28,906 nucleotides of DNA from a virus (lineage: Duplodnaviria; Heunggongvirae; Uroviricota; Caudoviricetes), in the IMG/VR virus record IMGVR_UViG_2548876943_000002, positions 1-28,906 of that record; one strand, 5' to 3'. Positions 2,392 through 26,069 of the stretch are shown one piece after another. Position 1 is the first letter of the stretch. Each line of letters starts with the position of its first letter. The translations under genes were made by a program, and so were the position numbers. Below the pieces are notes generated by a model. It saw only the letters and a program-made list of their open reading frames with translations, searched no databases and was not told the DNA's origin.

Positions 2392-2466
2392 GGGTCAGTC
2401 GTATAAAGGTCATTACGGAAGGCTGTTAACCTTCTTATCGTGGTTCGAGTCCACGCTGTCCCGCCA
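2392..2466 (+). tRNA. tRNA-like gene, anticodon loop CUGUUAA (GUU, Asn-like); imperfect acceptor and D stems
   Basis: Manual fold: acceptor GGGTCAG/CTGTCCC (one T-T mismatch), anticodon stem GAAGG/CCTTC, T arm CGTGG-TTCGAGT-CCACG, discriminator G plus CCA. D stem only 3 bp. Confidence 0.45.
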
Positions 2467-2471
2467 AACAT

Positions 2472-2547
2472 GCTGGTTTAGCTCCAATGGTAGAGCAGTC
2501 GCCTTGTAAGCGAATGGGTAGCGGTTCAAGTCCGTTAACCAGCACCA
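2472..2547 (+). tRNA. tRNA, anticodon UGU (Thr) by manual fold
   Basis: Acceptor GCTGGTT/AACCAGC (7 bp), D arm TAGCTC..GAGCA, anticodon loop CTTGTAA, T loop TTCAAGT, 3' ACCA. One G-A mismatch at the base of the anticodon stem. Confidence 0.6.
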
Positions 2548-2790: not shown

Positions 2791-3114
2791 ATGAAGATGC
2801 CAGAAAAACATGACCTGTTAGCCGCCATTCTCGCGGCAAAGGAACAAGGCATCGGGGCAATCCTTGCGTTTGCAATGGCGTACCTTCGCGGCAGGTATAA
2901 TGGCGGTGCGTTTACAAAAACAGTAATCGACGCAACGATGTGCGCCATTATCGCCTGGTTCATTCGTGACCTTCTCGACTTCGCCGGACTAAGTAGCAAT
3001 CTCGCTTATATAACGAGCGTGTTCATCGGCTACATCGGTACTGACTCGATTGGTTCGCTTATCAAACGCTTCGCTGCTAAAAAAGCCGGAGTAGAAGATG
3101 GTGGAAATCAATAA
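2791..3114 (+). CDS. S: Class I holin S with dual-start motif (Met1-Lys2-Met3)
   Basis: Protein is nearly identical to lambda S as recalled ([39 protein letters not shown]...). Upstream CCCCTTATTGGGGGG hairpin and TAAGACATGAAGATG match the lambda sdi region. Confidence 0.9.
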
Positions 3115-7326: not shown

Positions 7327-9453
7327 ATGGCAGAGACATTAGAGAAAAAACATGAGCGGATCATGCTCAGGTTTGACCGCGCCTATTCTCCACAGCAGGA
7401 AGTGCGCGAAAAGTGCATTGAAGCTACGAGGTTTGCTCGTGTCCCCGGAGGTCAATGGGAAGGAGCAACGGCGGCTGGAACTAAGCTTGATGAGCAGTTC
7501 GAGAAGTATCCTAAGTTTGAAATCAATAAGGTAGCAACTGAACTTAACCGCATCATTGCAGAATACCGCAATAACAGAATCACTGTTAAGTTTCGTCCTG
7601 GTGACAGAGAGGCAAGCGAAGAGTTAGCCAATAAATTAAATGGTCTGTTCCGTGCTGACTACGAAGAAACTGATGGCGGTGAGGCTTGCGATAATGCATT
7701 TGACGACGCTGCTACTGGTGGTTTCGGTTGCTTCCGTTTGACGTCGATGCTGGTCAATGAATACGACCCCATGGACGATCGTCAGCGTATTGCTATTGAA
7801 CCAATATACGACCCGTCGCGCTCTGTGTGGTTTGACCCTGACGCTAAGAAGTACGACAAATCTGACGCGTTGTGGGCGTTCTGCATGTATTCGTTGTCAC
7901 CTGAAAAATATGAGGCTGAATACGGAAAGAAACCTCCTGCTTCACTGGATGTAACGTCTATTACCAGTTGGGAATATGACTGGTTTGATGCAGATGTTAT
8001 TTACATAGCGAAGTATTACGAAGTTCGTAAAGAGTCTGTTGACGTCATCAGTTATCGACATCCAATCACTGGAGAGATTGCAACATACGACAGTGATCAG
8101 GTCGAAGATATTGAAGATGAATTGGCAATAGCTGGATTTCAGGAAGTTGCAAGGCGCTCAGTGAAGCGACGTCGTGTGTATGTATCAGTAGTGGATGGTG
8201 ATGGTTTCCTTGAGAAACCTAGACGTATCCCTGGTGAGCATATCCCCCTCATCCCGGTTTATGGAAAACGCTGGTTCATTGATGACATTGAGCGTGTCGA
8301 AGGGCACATTGCAAAAGCAATGGATCCACAGCGTTTGTACAACATTCAGGTTTCAATGCTGGCTGATACTGCAGCGCAAGACCCCGGTCAGATACCTATA
8401 GTTGGCATGGAGCAAATTCGTGGACTTGAGAAGCACTGGGAGGCTCGCAACAAGAAACGCCCAGCGTTCTTGCCGTTGCGCGAAGTGAGAGATAAATCTG
8501 GCAACATTATCGCTGGAGCTACCCCGGCAGGATATACACAGCCTGCGGTTATGAATCAGGCATTGGCTGCATTACTACAGCAAACCAGTGCAGATATTCA
8601 GGAGGTTACAGGCGGCAGTCAGGCCATGCAGCAGATGCCAAGTAATATTGCTCAGGAAACGGTTAACAACTTGATGAACAGAGCAGATATGGCTTCGTTT
8701 ATCTATCTGGACAATATGGCGAAAAGTCTTAAACGCGCTGGTGAAATATGGCTGTCAATGGCGCGTGAAGTGTACGGTTCAGAGCGTGAAGTGCGCATCG
8801 TTAACGAAGATGGAAGTGATGATATCGCTGTCCTGAGCGCACAGGTTGTTGACAGGCAAACAGGGGCTGTTGTTGCGTTAAATGACCTTTCTGTCGGTCG
8901 ATACGATGTGACGGTTGATGTTGGACCAAGCTACACATCACGACGTGATGCAACGGTTTCTGTACTGACAAATGTCCTTAGCTCTATGCTTCCAACAGAC
9001 CCAATGCGCCCGGCAATTCAGGGTATTATTCTGGACAATATCGATGGCGAAGGCCTTGATGACTTCAAAGAGTACAACCGAAACCAACTGTTGATATCTG
9101 GTATTGCAAAACCACGCAATGAGAAAGAGCAGCAGATTGTTCAACAGGCGCAAATGGCAGCACAAAGCCAGCCAAATCCTGAAATGGTTCTCGCTCAGGC
9201 GCAAATGGTAGCAGCGCAGGCAGAAGCGCAAAAAGCAACTAACGAAACTGCTCAAACTCAAATCAAAGCATTTACTGCCCAGCAGGATGCGATGGAGAGT
9301 CAGGCAAACACTGTCTATAAACTGGCTCAAGCAAGAAACATCGATGACAAAGCGGTGATGGAGGCAATACGCCTTCTGAAAGATGTCGCCGAGTCACAAC
9401 AACAGCAATTCCAGTCACCACCACAGTCACCGGCAGACTTAATGCCGAGTTAA
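7327..9453 (+). CDS. Portal protein (P22 gp1/Sf6 gp3-like)
   Basis: About 708 aa after terL. Q/A-rich C-terminal barrel segment typical of P22-like portals. ATG at 7327 chosen over the track's non-ATG start at 7318. Confidence 0.85.
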   Translation: MAETLEKKHERIMLRFDRAYSPQQEVREKCIEATRFARVPGGQWEGATAAGTKLDEQFEKYPKFEINKVATELNRIIAEYRNNRITVKFRPGDREASEELANKLNGLFRADYEETDGGEACDNAFDDAATGGFGCFRLTSMLVNEYDPMDDRQRIAIEPIYDPSRSVWFDPDAKKYDKSDALWAFCMYSLSPEKYEAEYGKKPPASLDVTSITSWEYDWFDADVIYIAKYYEVRKESVDVISYRHPITGEIATYDSDQVEDIEDELAIAGFQEVARRSVKRRRVYVSVVDGDGFLEKPRRIPGEHIPLIPVYGKRWFIDDIERVEGHIAKAMDPQRLYNIQVSMLADTAAQDPGQIPIVGMEQIRGLEKHWEARNKKRPAFLPLREVRDKSGNIIAGATPAGYTQPAVMNQALAALLQQTSADIQEVTGGSQAMQQMPSNIAQETVNNLMNRADMASFIYLDNMAKSLKRAGEIWLSMAREVYGSEREVRIVNEDGSDDIAVLSAQVVDRQTGAVVALNDLSVGRYDVTVDVGPSYTSRRDATVSVLTNVLSSMLPTDPMRPAIQGIILDNIDGEGLDDFKEYNRNQLLISGIAKPRNEKEQQIVQQAQMAAQSQPNPEMVLAQAQMVAAQAEAQKATNETAQTQIKAFTAQQDAMESQANTVYKLAQARNIDDKAVMEAIRLLKDVAESQQQQFQSPPQSPADLMPS

Positions 9454-15753: not shown

Positions 15754-17130
15754 ATGGCTACTTGGCAAGGATCAAATGGCGGATTGTTAGCTGGTATCGG
15801 CGGCGTCAACTCAAACGCTCCGAGCGTAAATGACATCGGCAATACGCTTCAGCTTATCAGGCAGAACAATGATATTGAGCGTTCAGGCGCTAACAATGTT
15901 GGGCTGACTGCTTTGCAAGGTCTTTCAGGTATTGCAGGGGTGTTTCAGCAGGAAAAGCAGGCTCAGCGGCAGAAAGAATTTCAGCAGGCATACGCTAATG
16001 CTTATGCGTCTGGTGATCGCGGTGCTTTGCGTCAGTTGGCTACTCAATATCCAGACCAGATTGAATCCGTTCGTAAAGGCATGGGATTCATTGATGAAGA
16101 TCAGCGTAATTCTATCGGCACCTTAGCGGCTGGCGCACGCCTTGCGTCATCGTCTCCAGAAGCAATGCAATCATGGCTGCAAAACAACGCCAAGGAACTG
16201 ACTCGAGTCGGTGTTGACCCTAATAACGTTGCTCAGATGTATCAGCAGAATCCTTCAGGATTTGGTGAGTTTGTTGATCACCTTGGAATGTCAGCGCTTG
16301 GTCCTAATGATTATTTCAATGTTCAGGACAAGATGGCTGGTCGTGAGATTGACCGAGGCAGGCTGGCAGAGACAATCCGCAGCAATCAGGCTGGCGAGGC
16401 ACTTCAGGCGAGAGGGCAAAACCTTTCCTATCAGTCAGCAATGACTGGACACGGACTTGCAGCAGAAAGGCTGGCACTTGATAAGCAGAAATTCGGTTTT
16501 GAAGTACAACAGGCACAAAAGAAGGCCGATGAACTTATTAATGCTGCGCCAAAACTATCTGTGAACATGGAAAAGGCTATAGAAAAATCAGCAGGTGATG
16601 CGGCAGCTAGTCGTAATGCTGCCGATTCAATGACAACGCTTGCTGACACGCTTGAGAAGGAGAAGCCAACTCCTGGTTTGTTCGGTAACGCTGAAAATAT
16701 GTTCACTAAGCTTACGGGGCAAGATAACTACCTCCGAGATATGCGGATTAGATTCAACCAACTAGCCAATGCGCAGGCAACAAAGCTTCTCCCTCCCGGC
16801 CCTGCATCAGATAAGGATGTTGAGTTTGCAAGGAAAGGCATTCCAAGCGAAACGGATAATCCAATGGTCATGGCTCGATGGTTAAGGGGGATGGCAAAAA
16901 TGGAAAGTAATAACGCGAAGTTCAACGAGTTTAGGTCAGAGTGGATGAGTGCAAATGGCAGCCCAGGACAATCTGATCGCAACCGAAACATCATGGGGAT
17001 GGATGTTAAGAAGGGTGAATCATTGAACTCTGCGGCAAAACGTTTTCTTTCCTCAAGTTATGGCGATAGCCAACCTCAACAGCAATTGTCCGATGACGAA
17101 TTAATTAGCAAATATCTCGGAGGGCAGTAA
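15754..17130 (+). CDS. Ejection protein, P22 gp20-like
   Basis: 458 aa, syntenic, low-complexity Q/A-rich composition typical of E-proteins. Confidence 0.7.
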
Positions 17131-18956
17131 TGGCCTATAGTCGTGAACAGTTGATGACGGCGTTAAGGAATGCTGATGCTGCCGGCGATACTGAGGGAGC
17201 ACGTCGCATTGCTCAGATGCTGTCTTCTGGTGATCAATCCACTCAAAACCAATCGCAGCCAGAAGAACAATCTCTGGTGGGAAAAGCTACTGACTGGCTC
17301 ACTGGTGGTCAAAGTGCAGGGCAAATTGCAGAACAGGCTGGTCGTGGTCTGGTAAACATACCATTTGACGTATTGCAGGGTGGCGCAAGTCTGATTAATG
17401 CAATCAGTCAGGGGCTTGGTGGTCCAAAAGTATTGGATGATGTCTATCGTCCAGTCGATCGACCGACAGACCCTTATGCGCAAACTGGAGAAACAATTGG
17501 CGGGTATTTAGTTCCAGGAGTTGGAACGGCAGGAAGCATGGCTATTGGATCACTGGCAGAGGCCGCAAATCAGAAAGGCGATTTCGCACAAAATGCAGCA
17601 AAAAATGCCGGAGTTAACCTTGCCGCTCAGGGGGTTCTTTCCGCAGCAGCAAAGGGAATAGGGCGTGGAATAACGGCTATAAAAGGTGATATTGCGCCAG
17701 AAGTAGCGAAGAAAATTGCCACATCAGAATCGATGGGCGTGACACCAATGACATCTGATGTTATCCCGCCGAAAAATGCTTTCACTCGCGGCCTTACTCA
17801 GGATGCCGAGGGGGCTTTGCTCGGGACAGGCTCAAAGCGAGCGGAGCAATATGCAACGCGTAGTAAGCTGGTAAGCAATTATTTTGACCGTTTTGGTGAG
17901 TACAACCCTGATGATGTGGTGAAATCTCTGACCACCACGTTAAGGGGGCGGAAGGATGCCGCTGGCGCTGTTATCAATGACGTCACCAATAAAATGGGTA
18001 ATGCCGCAGTTGATACCACAAATACCATGAATGCTCTGAATACAGCGATCGCAAGACAGGAACGGCTTGGGACGTCTGCCAATCAAAGCCTGCTTACATC
18101 CTTGCGTAACCTACGTGAAGAATTAGCAAACCCTGCAACTGATTTGGATGTTACGTTTGATCTCTTGCGTCAGCACAGAACAGCATTTAGATCTAATGTT
18201 CAGGGAGATGCTATGGTCTTCCCCAACCAGGCAAAAGCAGCTACCAATATGGTAGAGAATGCAATGTCAAAAGACCTTCGTAACGCAGTTGCAAAAAACC
18301 TCGGTGCGTCAGACGCAGCAAAATACCTTAAAGCAAATTCCGATTATGCAAACGTTTATAATAAGGTGCTTAATAAAAACATTGCCAACAAGCTCAACAA
18401 GGCAAGCAGTGAAGCCAGTCCTGAACTTATAAATACCGTTGTATTAAGCAGAAAACCATCTGACGTGAAACGAATCTGGAGCGCACTGGATGATAAGGGG
18501 AAAGATGCTATGCGTGCAGCTTACGTCAGCAAAATAGCGGAAAAGGCCGGGGACTCTCCAGCCAAGTTCATCACTGAAGTTAATAAGCTGAAATCTCAGT
18601 CAGGCGGTGAAATTTACAACACTATTTTTTCTGGAAAGCACATGAAAGAGCTTGATGCTCTTCATGAAGTTCTACAGCAAACAGCAAGGTCAGACACCGC
18701 AAATGTAGTAACTCAGACGGGGCAATCGCAAGCCAACAGGATAAGGACGATTGGCGCAACTGCGACCCTTGGCGTATCAATGGGGCTTGAGGCTGGTTTT
18801 GGTGCAATGATGCGCTTGTATGAGTCTAAAGCAGCAAGAAACATGCTTCTCCGCCTTGCAAACGTCAAGCCTGGAACTCCGGCATATGAGCGAGCGTTAA
18901 ATCAGGCTGCTAACGCCGTTCGCCCTCTCCTAACTAACGAAGCTACCAGGCAGTAG
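17130..18956 (+). CDS. Ejection protein, P22 gp16-like
   Basis: 608 aa (P22 gp16 is about 609), syntenic; start overlaps gp20-like stop. Confidence 0.7.
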
Positions 18957-18975: not shown

Positions 18976-19305
18976 CTATTTAATTCTCTTTTCAATGGCT
19001 GCAATTATTGCTTTTCCTGATGTTTCAGGAGATTTTGTAGCCATATAAGACGAAAAAATCATGTCGGTCATTCTTTCATAACTTACTATTTCCCACTTAG
19101 CCAATGCATGGGACAGTTTGTAGTTGTCATCAGTTAGTGCCCTTATGGAATTTTTTAAGTGTTTATTCTCTTCAGTTAATCGCGCAATTTTTGTATCAAT
19201 TTCATGTGAGCGATCTAATTCCTTAACCTGTTTCTTGAGGGCAGCTAACCCTGCATATAGTACGCAACAGGATATCCCAAGAGCGAGTACTACTATTTCT
19301 AACAC
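18976..19305 (-). CDS. Small membrane-anchored coiled-coil protein (109 aa); candidate superinfection-exclusion or accessory protein
   Basis: Minus-strand ORF convergent with gp16-like. N-terminal hydrophobic segment (LEIVVLALGISCCVLYAGLAAL) then charged heptad-like region. Sits where P22 carries sieA, but shows no recognisable similarity. Confidence 0.5.
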   Translation of the reverse strand: MLEIVVLALGISCCVLYAGLAALKKQVKELDRSHEIDTKIARLTEENKHLKNSIRALTDDNYKLSHALAKWEIVSYERMTDMIFSSYMATKSPETSGKAIIAAIEKRIK

Positions 19306-19679
19306 ACCAACCTCCTTAGTTTTTCGCAGGATACCAGATGATACTTTATTGGTGGAGTGGTGTGTGAAAACGTGTCAACGACAAACCATCCACAACTTGG
19401 ACGAATGATTTAGCAAAAAGTGCTATTTTTGGTGTTTGGTGTCATAGAAAAGTGAATAGCTCACTTTTCAACATTGCATGAAACTTGCAGGAAATGTGAC
19501 ATTACCTTATAGGTAACTTCGGCGAAAATGCAGTAAATGTGAAACGTAATGGTTTAAACATGTCGCTAAAGTGGTTGTAAGTTAGCCTCCGAAGGATTGC
19601 TGATAGCTTTGTTATAGTATTAAATGACATTTGACATAGTTGGATACTTAGCTGTGGCTATCAAGATGGAGGTGTGTTC

Positions 19680-20123
19680 ATGCTTACTTGTTTTGATGTC
19701 GCCGACTACTTCCTGTCGCGGTGTGACGAGGATAGCGGTGACACAATCTCTAATTTAAAATTACAAAAGCTTGTTTACTATGCTCAGGGTTTTTCATTGG
19801 CGTTGCTTGGCGAGCCTCTTTTTCAGAATAAGATGGAAGCTTGGATGCATGGCCCTGTTGTCCCTGAGCTTTATCGCCGTTATAAACAATATGGTAATGG
19901 CGCTATCCCTTCTCCAGAGTCTTTTGATGCTGAAAAATTCAGCGAAGAACAGTTAGAGCTATTAGAAGAAGTCTGGGATGTTTTTGGGCAATTTTCTGCC
20001 TGGAAACTGAGGAACATGACACACGAAGAGTCACCATGGAGATCAAACTATATTGAGGGTGTTGGTGGTTCTGAAATTAGCTCTAAGGAGATGGCAGAGT
20101 ACTTTGCAACTCGGATTAACTAA
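19680..20123 (+). CDS. Panacea/DUF4065 (SocA/GepA-like) domain protein; candidate PanA-type antitoxin
   Basis: Motif NLKLQKLVYYAQGFSLALLGEPLFQNKMEAWMHGPVVPELY resembles the DUF4065 (PF13274) signature as recalled. GGAGG RBS 8 nt upstream of ATG 19680 (track's non-ATG start at 19674 rejected). AT-rich moron context. Confidence 0.6.
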   Translation: MLTCFDVADYFLSRCDEDSGDTISNLKLQKLVYYAQGFSLALLGEPLFQNKMEAWMHGPVVPELYRRYKQYGNGAIPSPESFDAEKFSEEQLELLEEVWDVFGQFSAWKLRNMTHEESPWRSNYIEGVGGSEISSKEMAEYFATRIN

Positions 20124-20127
20124 CGAG

Positions 20128-20547
20128 ATGGCAAGAAAATCTAAAAGGATTATCCCCCCTGCTGAATCTACAGGTAAGTTAAAGTTAGGGCCGCAGTCAG
20201 GGGGGAATTCAGATCAAAAGAAACCGAAATTTTCATTCTGTTACATCCAAAGCTCTCACTGCATAACGAAATGCCAAAAAGATGAGAAAGCTGGCTTAGC
20301 TGATAAATTATACAGATTAAGTCAACTAACATGGGCAGAGATTAAGCAGCAAGGTAGGCATAAGCTTGGATTTGAGAAGATTGCAAGGGGTGCAATTAAA
20401 GCAGGTATCCCCAGTCATATAACGGAAGACGTAGATCATTTCTTGGCTTTTAGATTTGATGATTTGAAAGCCATGGTTGGTTATCGTCTTGGATCGACAT
20501 TTTTTGTTATATGGCTTGATAGAGAGTTCAACCTATACAAGCACTAA
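20128..20547 (+). CDS. Uncharacterised 139-aa protein coupled to the Panacea-domain gene; candidate toxin/effector partner
   Basis: Starts 4 nt after the upstream stop. Basic N-terminus (MARKSKRIIPP...), C-terminus GYRLGSTFFVIWLDREFNLYKH. No family recognised. Followed by a strong hairpin terminator. Confidence 0.5.
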   Translation: MARKSKRIIPPAESTGKLKLGPQSGGNSDQKKPKFSFCYIQSSHCITKCQKDEKAGLADKLYRLSQLTWAEIKQQGRHKLGFEKIARGAIKAGIPSHITEDVDHFLAFRFDDLKAMVGYRLGSTFFVIWLDREFNLYKH

Positions 20548-22134: not shown

Positions 22135-24165
22135 ATGACAGATTCAATAAATGCCAATGTTGTAGTAAGTATGCCATCGCAACTCTTCACTATGGCTCGT
22201 TCTTTTAAAGCCGTAGCCAATGGTAAAATTTATATTGGTAAAATTGACACTGACCCGGTAAATCCAGAAAACCAGATTCAGGTTTATGTGGAGAACGAAG
22301 ACGGTTCTCACGTTCCTGTTTCGCAACCAATCATCATTAACGCTGCTGGATATCCGGTATATAACGGACAGATTGCCAAGTTTGTAACTGTGCAAGGCCA
22401 TTCTATGGCTGTTTATGATGCGTACGGTGTGCAGCAGTTCTATTTTCCGAATGTGCTGAAGTATGATCCAGATCAGTTCTCCATAGATTTCCCTCAGCAA
22501 CTTTCTCAATTAGGGTTATATGTAAATGATGACAGCAAGGGAGATGCAATGATAGGTGTTAAGCAGCCTATCACTGGGTCAATTCATCGTACACAGCACG
22601 ATGTAAACTATGAAAGAATTAGCGCTTTTGACCTTGGAGTGAAGGGGGATGGAGTTACTGATGATGTAACTGCAATTAGAGAAGCACTAATCACTGCAGC
22701 AACAGCAAGACGTTCCATCCATTTCCCTGATGGCGTCTATTTATGCAGTGACTTTTTTTCAATACCAAGCCACTCAAGGATCTATTGTGACCCCGGTGCA
22801 GTTTTTAAACTTACAGGTAGTACTAGCCTTGGTGGATTCGCTGTAACAGGCCTCAATAATCAGGTGCAGACAGAGCTATGTGAAGATGTTGTTACGTATA
22901 ACATGACGCTTGATTGCAATAAAATATCAGGTGAAAACGGAATGAATGGCGTGACATGTAGGAACATACGTCACTACAACCTTACAGTCATTAATACTCT
23001 TCACAACGCAGAATCAAGAGGAGGAAGGGCCTTTCAATGCGAAGGGGGGATTTCATCTGATGTCCATGTTTTTAACTTTGTAATTAAAAATTGCTCTATA
23101 GGTGTAAATTATCAAGGGCTACCAGATGCATCTCAAAAGGTTGCAGCATTCAGCTTTCACGGTGTAGCAATGGAGAACGTAGATGTTCCGTTCTGTATTT
23201 ATTCACAAATATCTAACCCTGAGTCAAACACACCAGAAATTATGAGTGTAGCTGCGTTTGATGTAAGTTGCCATAACTGCGGAAAAATCACTGGTGGATA
23301 TGGTGATCAACTTGGTGCTGGAATAATATGTGGCGATAGAGGTTATGGGCTATTTATAGATGGTATTCGAGTGGTTAACGAATCATCGTATGGAGGGATT
23401 GGAGCTTTTATAAGGGGGCAAATGTTTGGCGTATCAATAAACAACGCTGACATTTATTGCATTTACGCTGTTTCAGTAATAGATCATAACAAGATAGGGT
23501 TTGATGACGCCGCTGTTAATACAGTTCCTTCAAGCGTTAGAGTTAGAAATTTAAATGTATCAAGTAATTTGGATTTTATAGTTCGAGCCCCTGACTCTTC
23601 GGCTATTGGTAACTCAACAGTTGACGTGTCTGTAAACATAACAAGAGCATCACTAAATCAATTATTTGATTCTGGCGCAGGAGGAAGCGCTTCCGCAGTT
23701 ATTAATATATCTGACTCTTTGACTGGTAAGTCATCAGGATTTAGAACGTTAAAAAATATTTTTGATGCTGGTAATTCTATTGGTTTACTATCTAGATATG
23801 ATGCTGGCGGAAGCTGGGTCCCAATAGACGGTAGTGGTGCAGGAATTGCAATATTATTAACAGGACAGCAAAAATATACAAAAGCAGGTGAGGTTGTTCA
23901 CTTTTATATGAACATCATATACCCAGTGAACGATAACACAAACGACGCTGTTATCTCTGGATTGCCTTTTAACTCTGTACCGTTTGTTTCTCAATTTGCA
24001 GGAGCGGCATCAATAGCGATTAAGTCATCATCAATGTTATCAACTGTAGGGATTCTTCCTGGTGGTGATAAGCTGAAATTCTATGGTACAACTGGTGCCC
24101 CACTAACTAACAGAGACATGTCAGGCGTTAGTGTTGCTGTTTTCGGATCATATATTTCAGAATAG
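22135..24165 (+). CDS. Tailspike protein: P22-like N-terminal head-binding domain fused to a divergent beta-helix (pectate-lyase-like) receptor-binding/depolymerase domain
   Basis: N-terminal about 115 aa (…[39 protein letters not shown]…[10 protein letters not shown]) matches the P22 gp9 head-binding domain as recalled. Downstream [21 protein letters not shown] resembles Pectate_lyase_3-type beta-helix motifs. Lower GC in the 3' two-thirds. Confidence 0.85.
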
Positions 24166-24204
24166 AAGAAAAATATATTTAAATTGGTGCAAAAACTTGG
24201 ACGC

Positions 24205-24236
24205 ACAAAGCTTTGTACTGGATTACAAAGCTTTGT
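24205..24236. repeat. Two perfect 12-bp palindromes ACAAAGCTTTGT with 20-bp centre-to-centre spacing, about 40 bp downstream of the tailspike stop
   Basis: Read directly from sequence at 24205-24216 and 24225-24236. Confidence 0.8.
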
Positions 24237-24896
24237 GTCATTCGATAGTTAAGGTGGTCACTCCACCTTTTCATCAATCCAGTCAGCCCACCATTGCATC
24301 ATTTCTCTGCACTTAATGTAGCGGATGCCTCACTATCACATAGTGATGGTTCATTACTGCTTTGTAGAATGGATAGAGAACTGAGGATAAAAAGATATCC
24401 CAAAACCCCAAAATCTCATCTTTAGGATTGCAGAAAGGGAGGCGTGAACAGATACCTGCGCATGAAGACGGAACCAGTCCAGATGTGATATTTGTGGTGA
24501 TCACATACATCATCAACGATGCTCGTTATGGTGAGTTTGATGACTACCCGCTGAAGTGAAAATAGTGTTGTGTACCAAATTGCGTACCAAACTAAAATCA
24601 CAAATCATGAAACCCTTGTTCATGGCGGTTCTCAGGGGTATTGCGCGTAATCGTGAAACAAAAAGGTAGATTGTTGCTTACCGTCATTCATCATTAGGTT
24701 AAATCCGTTATTTCTGCTGTCTGCCAGAGTATCAAATATCACCGTGCTAATCAGCTTTAGCGCAACAATTTGACAGCGAGTGGCAACAGATCATGTCAGA
24801 TAAAAATGAGAGAGTAGTCACATTTTCTTGCACTTTATTCCAGCCAGTTCATAAGTATTTCCGTAAAAAGAACAGCTATTTGAAACTCCTGAGGGT

Positions 24897-26069
24897 TTGC
24901 TGTTGAAACGCCGTCTTATTATTGCTGCTTCTTTGTTCGTTTTTAACTTATCGTCTGGTTTTGCGGCGGAAAACATTCCTTTTTCACCTCAGCCTCCACA
25001 GATTCATGCCGGGTCCTGGGTACTGATGGATTACACCACCGGTCAGATCCTCACCGCGGGTAATGAGCATCAACAGCGCAATCCCGCCAGCCTGACAAAG
25101 CTGATGACGGGTTATGTCGTGGATCGCGCTATCGATAGTCATCGCATTACGCCAGACGATATTGTCACCGTGGGGCGCGATGCGTGGGCGAAAGATAATC
25201 CGGTGTTTGTCGGTTCTTCACTGATGTTTTTGAAAGAGGGCGATCGCGTATCGGTACGTGATTTAAGCCGTGGTTTAATTGTGGATTCCGGAAATGACGC
25301 TTGTGTTGCTCTGGCTGACTATATTGCCGGTGGGCAACGGCAGTTTGTTGAAATGATGAACAACTATGCCGAGAAGCTGCATCTCAAGGATACGCATTTT
25401 GAAACAGTGCATGGTCTGGATGCACCTGGCCAGCATAGCTCGGCTTATGATTTAGCTGTGCTTTCTCGCGCTATCATCCACGGCGAGCCCGAGTTTTATC
25501 ATATGTACAGTGAGAAAAGTCTCACCTGGAACGGTATCACCCAGCAAAACCGTAACGGGTTGTTGTGGGATAAAACCATGAATGTTGACGGCCTGAAAAC
25601 GGGTCATACTTCTGGTGCCGGGTTTAATCTCATTGCTTCGGCTGTAGATGGGCAGCGTCGTCTCATTGCAGTGGTAATGGGGGCTGACAGTGCAAAAGGT
25701 CGTGAGGAAGAGGCAAGAAAATTACTGCGTTGGGGGCAACAAAACTTTACTACGGTGCAAATTTTGCACCGTGGGAAAAAGGTCGGAACGGAACGCATCT
25801 GGTATGGCGATAAAGAAAATATCGACCTGGGAACGGAACAAGAGTTCTGGATGGTGCTACCGAAAGCCGAAATTCCACATATCAAAGCCAAATATACCCT
25901 TGATGGTAAAGAGCTCACCGCGCCAATTAACGCCCATCAGCGGGTAGGGGAAATTGAACTTTACGACCGTGATAAACAGGTGGCGCACTGGCCGCTGGTT
26001 ACCCTGGAATCTGTCGGGGAAGGCGGCATGTTTTCCCGCCTGAGTGATTATTTCCACCATAAGGCCTGA
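24897..26069 (+). CDS. dacD: D-alanyl-D-alanine carboxypeptidase DacD (PBP6b); TTG start as in the ORF track
   Basis: Protein recognised as E. coli DacD from memory (signal peptide, SxxK motif in NPASLTKLMTGY, SGN motif in DSGNDA). Confidence 0.85.
   Translation: MLLKRRLIIAASLFVFNLSSGFAAENIPFSPQPPQIHAGSWVLMDYTTGQILTAGNEHQQRNPASLTKLMTGYVVDRAIDSHRITPDDIVTVGRDAWAKDNPVFVGSSLMFLKEGDRVSVRDLSRGLIVDSGNDACVALADYIAGGQRQFVEMMNNYAEKLHLKDTHFETVHGLDAPGQHSSAYDLAVLSRAIIHGEPEFYHMYSEKSLTWNGITQQNRNGLLWDKTMNVDGLKTGHTSGAGFNLIASAVDGQRRLIAVVMGADSAKGREEEARKLLRWGQQNFTTVQILHRGKKVGTERIWYGDKENIDLGTEQEFWMVLPKAEIPHIKAKYTLDGKELTAPINAHQRVGEIELYDRDKQVAHWPLVTLESVGEGGMFSRLSDYFHHKA

Follow-up and report, generated by a model that had tools for sequence, protein, structure and literature searches.

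The interval 24166-24896 of the window (the whole stretch of DNA analysed, 28,906 nucleotides of the IMG/VR virus record IMGVR_UViG_2548876943_000002) very likely contains the attR of a P22-like (Lederbergvirus-type) prophage that a lambda-type tyrosine integrase inserted at the 'type 2851' site of sbcB, the host gene for exonuclease I; to this reading we assign a probability of about 0.93. The crossover core of this attR, CGTAATCGTGAAA (24646-24658, plus strand), was located by alignment of attB, attP, attL and attR sequences, and homology breaks sharply at the core on the host side as well as on the phage side. Judged from the prophage of XJW9B263, attL and the integrase gene (int) should lie about 13 kb beyond the left edge of the window, and by analogy with its relatives the prophage studied here should possess a matching int and attL at that end. 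For annotation, 24658 serves as the prophage end, with the boundary resolved to 13 bp.

The junction and its 13-bp core

The core is identical in all six sequences aligned, i.e. the window, the attB of K-12, the attP of mEp234 and of Sf101, the attL represented by the sbcB/int junction of strain Z1323HEC0422, and the attR of phage 1717, and in this alignment the flanks around it swap partners as site-specific recombination predicts. It is present as a single copy in the window, and 100 shuffles yielded no match. A 13-bp att or duplication is annotated at the core in the mEp234 and 1717 records, and several records label the homologous phage stretch 'prophage attachment site (type 2851)' or 'duplication due to insertion'. 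The match to mEp234 extends to 24675 and creates an apparent 30-bp overlap with the host homology, which arises because attP, past the core, goes on to repeat the sbcB 5' end imperfectly.

Host DNA begins at 24646. In a pairwise blastn comparison, 24646-24910 is 98.9% identical to K-12, and a megablast search of 5426 complete E. coli genomes found 24646-24896 in 5416 of them, with sbcB annotated beneath the match; for the phage arm (24192-24645) no similarity to K-12 was detected. Read on the minus strand, the core comprises sbcB codons F13-H14-D15-Y16 and the first base of E17, located 34 bp downstream of the sbcB ATG, and the junction lies 238-250 bp upstream of dacD. The codon of the metal ligand Asp15 falls within the core, the target being the region of the conserved DxE (Asp15/Glu17) motif. 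This position of the core plausibly accounts for the near invariance of the target in E. coli.

A tRNA or another RNA gene as att target was ruled out by ARAGORN, which found no tRNA in 24166-24896, and by an Rfam search of the interval (E ≤ 1), which gave no match below E = 0.76. The only tRNA genes of the window, tRNA-Asn(GTT) and tRNA-Thr(TGT) (2392-2547, plus strand), are located between Q (1811-2329) and the holin gene (2791-3114); as the same pair occupies the same position in the XJW9B263 prophage, they are considered phage cargo and not an att target.

The earlier note on this DNA had reported an interval free of tRNA genes and had placed attR somewhere within it, and both statements are confirmed by the searches and by the core at 24646-24658. 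Its opinion that the phage/host boundary could not be fixed from the window alone is qualified by the attB and attP references, which place the boundary within the 13-bp core. It had also considered that the interval might be continuous phage sequence, or that the insertion might lie in a tRNA elsewhere; host DNA is present from 24646 onwards, and no tRNA is involved.

The prophage end and the phage arm of attR

The last phage gene before the junction (22135-24165, plus strand) encodes a P22-type tailspike of 676 aa with a Pfam Head_binding match (E 5.1e-65) and a pectate-lyase-like domain. The prophage was assigned to the P22-like phages since P22-type head, injection and immI genes precede the tailspike gene and P22 antirepressor domains were found. 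Its late region is continuous and apparently intact from the nin genes to the tailspike gene, and the window is collinear with HK620, Sf6 and the XJW9B263 prophage; the best match covered 71% of the phage part among complete E. coli genomes and 64% among phages.

A two-gene moron (19674-20547, plus strand) follows the injection-protein genes, the last of which is 17130-18956, and precedes the immunity-I genes mnt/arc/ant; in relatives this slot holds other genes. The first ORF encodes a protein of 149 aa with a SocA/Panacea antitoxin domain (PF13274, E 1.9e-24), and the second (20128-20547) a protein of 139 aa with no Pfam match and a weak match to PADLOC NsnC (E 5.9e-6); by these domain matches the two look like a Panacea-type toxin-antitoxin or defence pair. 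Also downstream of the injection genes, a 109-aa coiled-coil-like ORF (18976-19305, minus strand) gave sub-threshold matches only (DivIC, E 0.004; LmuB, E 0.0014), and ET151 has a 109-aa hypothetical gene at the equivalent position.

The tailspike stop is separated from the att module, where the phage matches begin at 24192, by a spacer of 26 bp (24166-24191), which represents an empty cargo slot. No O-antigen conversion gene (gtr or oac) was found between tailspike and att, as the earlier note had stated, and the longest ORFs of the interval comprise 61 and 67 aa; this slot of the prophage brings the strain neither gtr nor oac. The corresponding slot of the XJW9B263 prophage holds two small hypothetical ORFs, and that of the ET151 prophage, which has the same right end, a gene for a 636-aa acyltransferase and an intact S24/HumD gene.

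The phage arm of attR, i.e. the P arm of the 'type 2851' attP module, was defined by phage homology and spans 24192-24645 (plus strand). Matches in the phage collection run from 24192 to about 24675 and include mEp234, HK544, HK140, Sf101, the Stx2c phage 2851 and many Stx1a, Stx2a and Stx2c phages, among them 1717. Over 24192-24658 the identity to phages is 90-95%, with values of 94.9% for mEp234 (24192-24675), 93.8% for the Stx2 phage 1717 and 90.0% for Sf101, and on these sequence comparisons the att module is a portable element common to lambdoid siphoviruses and Stx phages.

Several elements can be distinguished within the arm. Behind the spacer, the 12-bp palindrome ACAAAGCTTTGT occurs in two perfect copies (24205-24216 and 24225-24236) that form a hairpin with a 15-bp stem (24203-24238, plus strand), the arms of which are imperfect in mEp234, Sf101 and 1717; the predicted folding energy of 24160-24290 is -39.3 kcal/mol (z = -5.0), and the element is possibly an RNA hairpin following the tailspike gene or a site at which a dimeric protein binds. 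It is followed by a GC-containing hairpin of 7 bp (AAGGTGG/CCACCTT) and TTTTC (24251-24269, plus strand), which is conserved in relatives and in its sequence resembles a weak intrinsic terminator. Both post-tailspike hairpins were detected by folding alone, and neither passes a strict scan for intrinsic terminators. A scan for consensus promoters gave a sole promoter-like match, which is located inside dacD. Further along the arm, the direct repeats TGTGTACCAAA (24569-24579) and TGCGTACCAAA (24581-24591), both on the plus strand, are candidate arm-type sites of the integrase. Their motif TG(T/C)GTACCAAA is present in two copies on the arm in the window, and the attP of mEp234 has two copies on the corresponding arm and three on the opposite arm, directly preceding int; the repeats are conserved in Sf101, 1717 and GPEC1292. 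Since they are found on both arms of the mEp234 attP, the layout expected for a lambda-like integrase, they are probably the arm sites of such an enzyme.

With an identity of 94-95% to siphoviral lambdoids, the module 24192-24658 might be thought to have been left behind by an older lambdoid or Stx-type prophage to which the P22-like DNA was later joined by recombination. Remnants do occur at the site, as illustrated by Z1323HEC0422 with its truncated int, an IS3 element and late genes only, and the left end of the prophage under study lies beyond the window. Against such a hybrid or remnant stand the inducible P22/Sf6-like phage Sf101, which bears the same int-att cassette straight after the tailspike gene and oacB, the XJW9B263 prophage at this site, whose P22-like gene order is complete between int and the tailspike gene, and the late region of the window itself, which is unbroken from the nin genes to the tailspike gene. 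We therefore regard this origin of the junction as improbable. An exchange of the int-att cassette between phages at some time in the past is likely, and it is compatible with integration of the P22-like prophage as a unit, the reading preferred here.

The central part of the arm (about 24306-24559, plus strand) is a decayed humD/umuD'-like pseudogene of the S24 peptidase family that was recognized by tblastn. It lacks the N-terminus and contains an in-frame stop and a frameshift, so that the homology is split over two frames; the two pieces gave E values of 6e-13 and 1e-10 with HK140 gp28 and of about 3e-10 each with the S24 peptidase of ET151. Pfam searches with the two fragments gave no match, the homology being detectable only by tblastn with the intact HK140 and ET151 proteins. 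The homologous stretch of GPEC1292 is annotated by PGAP as a HumD-family pseudogene, and indels in this region vary among relatives.

On the opposite strand of this region, the 67-aa ORF 24313-24516 (minus strand) was considered as a gene and rejected, as its frame and length are not conserved among five homologues. The idea that it encodes a real small protein draws on the annotation of ORFs under the homologous stretch in Sf101 (ORF17, 82 aa) and in PT109 ('hypothetical protein'), and on the paper on Sf101, in which ORF17 is listed as similar to uncharacterised E. coli proteins (PMC4159516). The minus-strand frames of the window, mEp234, Sf101, 1717 and GPEC1292, however, vary in frame and, through indels, in stop-to-stop length from 48 to 101 aa, the region of the ORF has no Pfam match, and the plus strand beneath it shows clear S24/HumD homology in two frames, which marks a pseudogene; a functional minus-strand gene is hence scarcely credible. 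The view of the earlier note that the interval holds no credible ORF is correct in that no intact gene is present, but it passed over the humD/umuD'-like pseudogene and the 5' stub of sbcB described below, both of which should be annotated as fragments.

Consequences of integration for sbcB

The host part of the interval beyond the core (24659-24896), assigned by its identity to K-12, consists of the remaining 5' end of sbcB and the native intergenic and promoter region between the divergent genes sbcB and dacD. The ORF list and its translation reveal an orphaned sbcB stub of 20 codons (24632-24694, minus strand) with the ATG at 24694-24692 and the stop codon at 24634-24632. It encodes MMNDGKQQSTFLFHDY from the host (16 sbcB codons), to which the phage arm adds AQYP and a stop codon, the N-terminus of K-12 SbcB being MMNDGKQQSTFLFHDYETFG. 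The first intact host gene is dacD, encoding PBP6b (24897-26069, plus strand), which was identified from the ORF list and homologous records; its start is either 24897 (the first TTG) or 24903 (the PGAP start in the homologous records). The order dacD, sbmC, yeeA downstream of the interval is that of K-12.

Recombination between attP and attB at CGTAATCGTGAAA interrupted sbcB within codons 13-17. Its own promoter and its first 16 codons remained beside dacD, where the stub reads into phage DNA, and at attL the body of sbcB would be joined to a look-alike 5' end supplied by the phage, giving an intact ORF of 474 aa beside int. Two occupied genomes, Z1323HEC0422 with its remnant and XJW9B263, indeed have an intact sbcB (474 aa, PGAP) annotated next to int. 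In these lysogens the SbcB N-terminus reads MTDTDKQPTFLFHDYE and is encoded by the phage P' arm, the host version being MMNDGKQQSTFLFHDYE; the P' arm/attL junctions are located at 7450-7675 of the XJW9B263 locus (L006) and at 31860-32095 of the Z1323HEC0422 locus (L001). The P' arm bears a diverged sbcB 5' end, of which about 30 bp past the core are imperfectly homologous to the host. For the attL of the prophage studied here, the predicted start of the chimeric sbcB is ATGACAGACACAGATAAACAACCTACCTTCCTCTTTCACGATTACG.

The chimeric sbcB is presumably expressed in lysogens. A scan of the 181-bp spacer between sbcB and int in the phage P' arm revealed no consensus sigma-70 promoter for the chimeric gene, and sbcB may be down-regulated in lysogens. 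Integration exchanges the native promoter and the first eight to nine residues of exonuclease I (ExoI) for those of the phage, and this exchange could conceivably retune ExoI levels to the benefit of the phage, with the orphaned native promoter transcribing antisense into the phage arm; taken together, we consider this proposal doubtful. If it were true, ssDNA metabolism, recombination and the thresholds of ssDNA- or cDNA-based defence could shift in about one tenth of E. coli genomes.

The sbcB site and comparison with known systems

Among 5426 complete E. coli genomes, 466-582 (approximately 9-11%) carry an occupied sbcB site. The lower figure refers to genomes that share at least 80% of the interval in the megablast search, i.e. 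the same kind of right junction, and the higher one (582 of 5426) to genomes with an attL-type junction. XJW9B263 contains a full-length P22-like prophage at the site with the order sbcB-int-...-tailspike-attR-dacD, and the integrases of this prophage, mEp234, Sf101 and HK140 are 98.7-99.5% identical. In Z1323HEC0422 (NZ_CP148339.1, O145), a degraded P22-like prophage was found at the site (32093-33526 of L001), in which an IS3 element has cut int short and the genes kept are only those from gp4 to the tailspike gene; its tailspike gene and attR are approximately 98-99.6% identical to the window, and the O-antigen (O145) gene cluster of that genome lies about 15 kb away from the sbcB site.

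The core sequence has been described before. It is the attP core published for Sf101, whose integration at the 5' end of sbcB was confirmed experimentally (PMC4159516), and the published attP of the Stx2c phage 2851 (Strauch et al. 2008, cited in PMC4159516); Int-dependent integration and excision across the core are reported for Sf101 and 2851 (PMC4159516). Moreover, sbcB is one of four standard Stx-prophage sites typed in O157 (PMC8309913; PMC3519850). A previously undescribed att site in intergenic DNA upstream of dacD, which the missing tRNA and the distance of 238-250 bp to dacD might suggest, therefore deserves practically no weight, because the core falls within codons 13-17 of sbcB (34 bp past the ATG), the mEp234 and 1717 records annotate it, it has been published for 2851 and Sf101 (PMC4159516), and the site is already occupied in the 466-582 genomes mentioned above. 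The earlier note was right in assigning the insertion to a non-tRNA locus beside dacD, but the target is the coding region of sbcB and not intergenic DNA; nor is the site unusual, since the published 'type 2851' site is used by the P22/Sf6-like phage Sf101 (PMC4159516) and occupied in up to 582 genomes. The att site is thus a common and documented hotspot that implies no new biology.

P22 integrates at thrW and Sf6 at argW, both of which are tRNA genes, and the two phages carry gtrABC or oac near attP; their prophages have the tailspike gene at the right end beside attR and use a lambda-type integrase mechanism. The window shares with them the layout of tailspike and attR and the general integrase mechanism, but differs in its target, which is the 5' end of a protein-coding gene instead of the 3' end of a tRNA gene, and in having no conversion gene. 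In the paper on Sf101, the sbcB site was likewise explicitly set against thrW and argW, at which other serotype-converting phages integrate (PMC4159516).

Sf101 itself, a serotype-converting Sf6/P22-like phage of Shigella, resembles the window in its P22-like virion module, in the core and in a P arm of 90% identity that includes the humD remnant. It differs by the presence of oacB (O-acyltransferase B) between the tailspike gene and the att module, where the window has 26 bp, and the tailspikes of the two diverge beyond the head-binding domain.

The Stx phages 2851 and 1717 have the identical core CGTAATCGTGAAA, the same flanks formed by the sbcB 5' end and dacD, and a P arm of 91-94% identity over about 470 bp. 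They are, however, long- or short-tailed lambdoids in which the module is preceded by tail-fibre genes and other cargo; in the window a P22-type tailspike gene takes this position, and no stx is present. The phages mEp234, HK544 and HK140 are siphoviruses (Hendrixvirinae) that share only the int-att cassette with the window; they carry the annotated 'type 2851' attP, and their integrases are approximately 99% identical to those of P22-like prophages at the site. The P arm of mEp234 is the closest to that of the window (94.9%), and HK140, like the ET151 prophage, has an intact gene for a 129-aa UmuD'-like protein where the window has the pseudogene. Stx, lambdoid and P22-like phages thus use the sbcB hotspot by means of a common int-att cassette.
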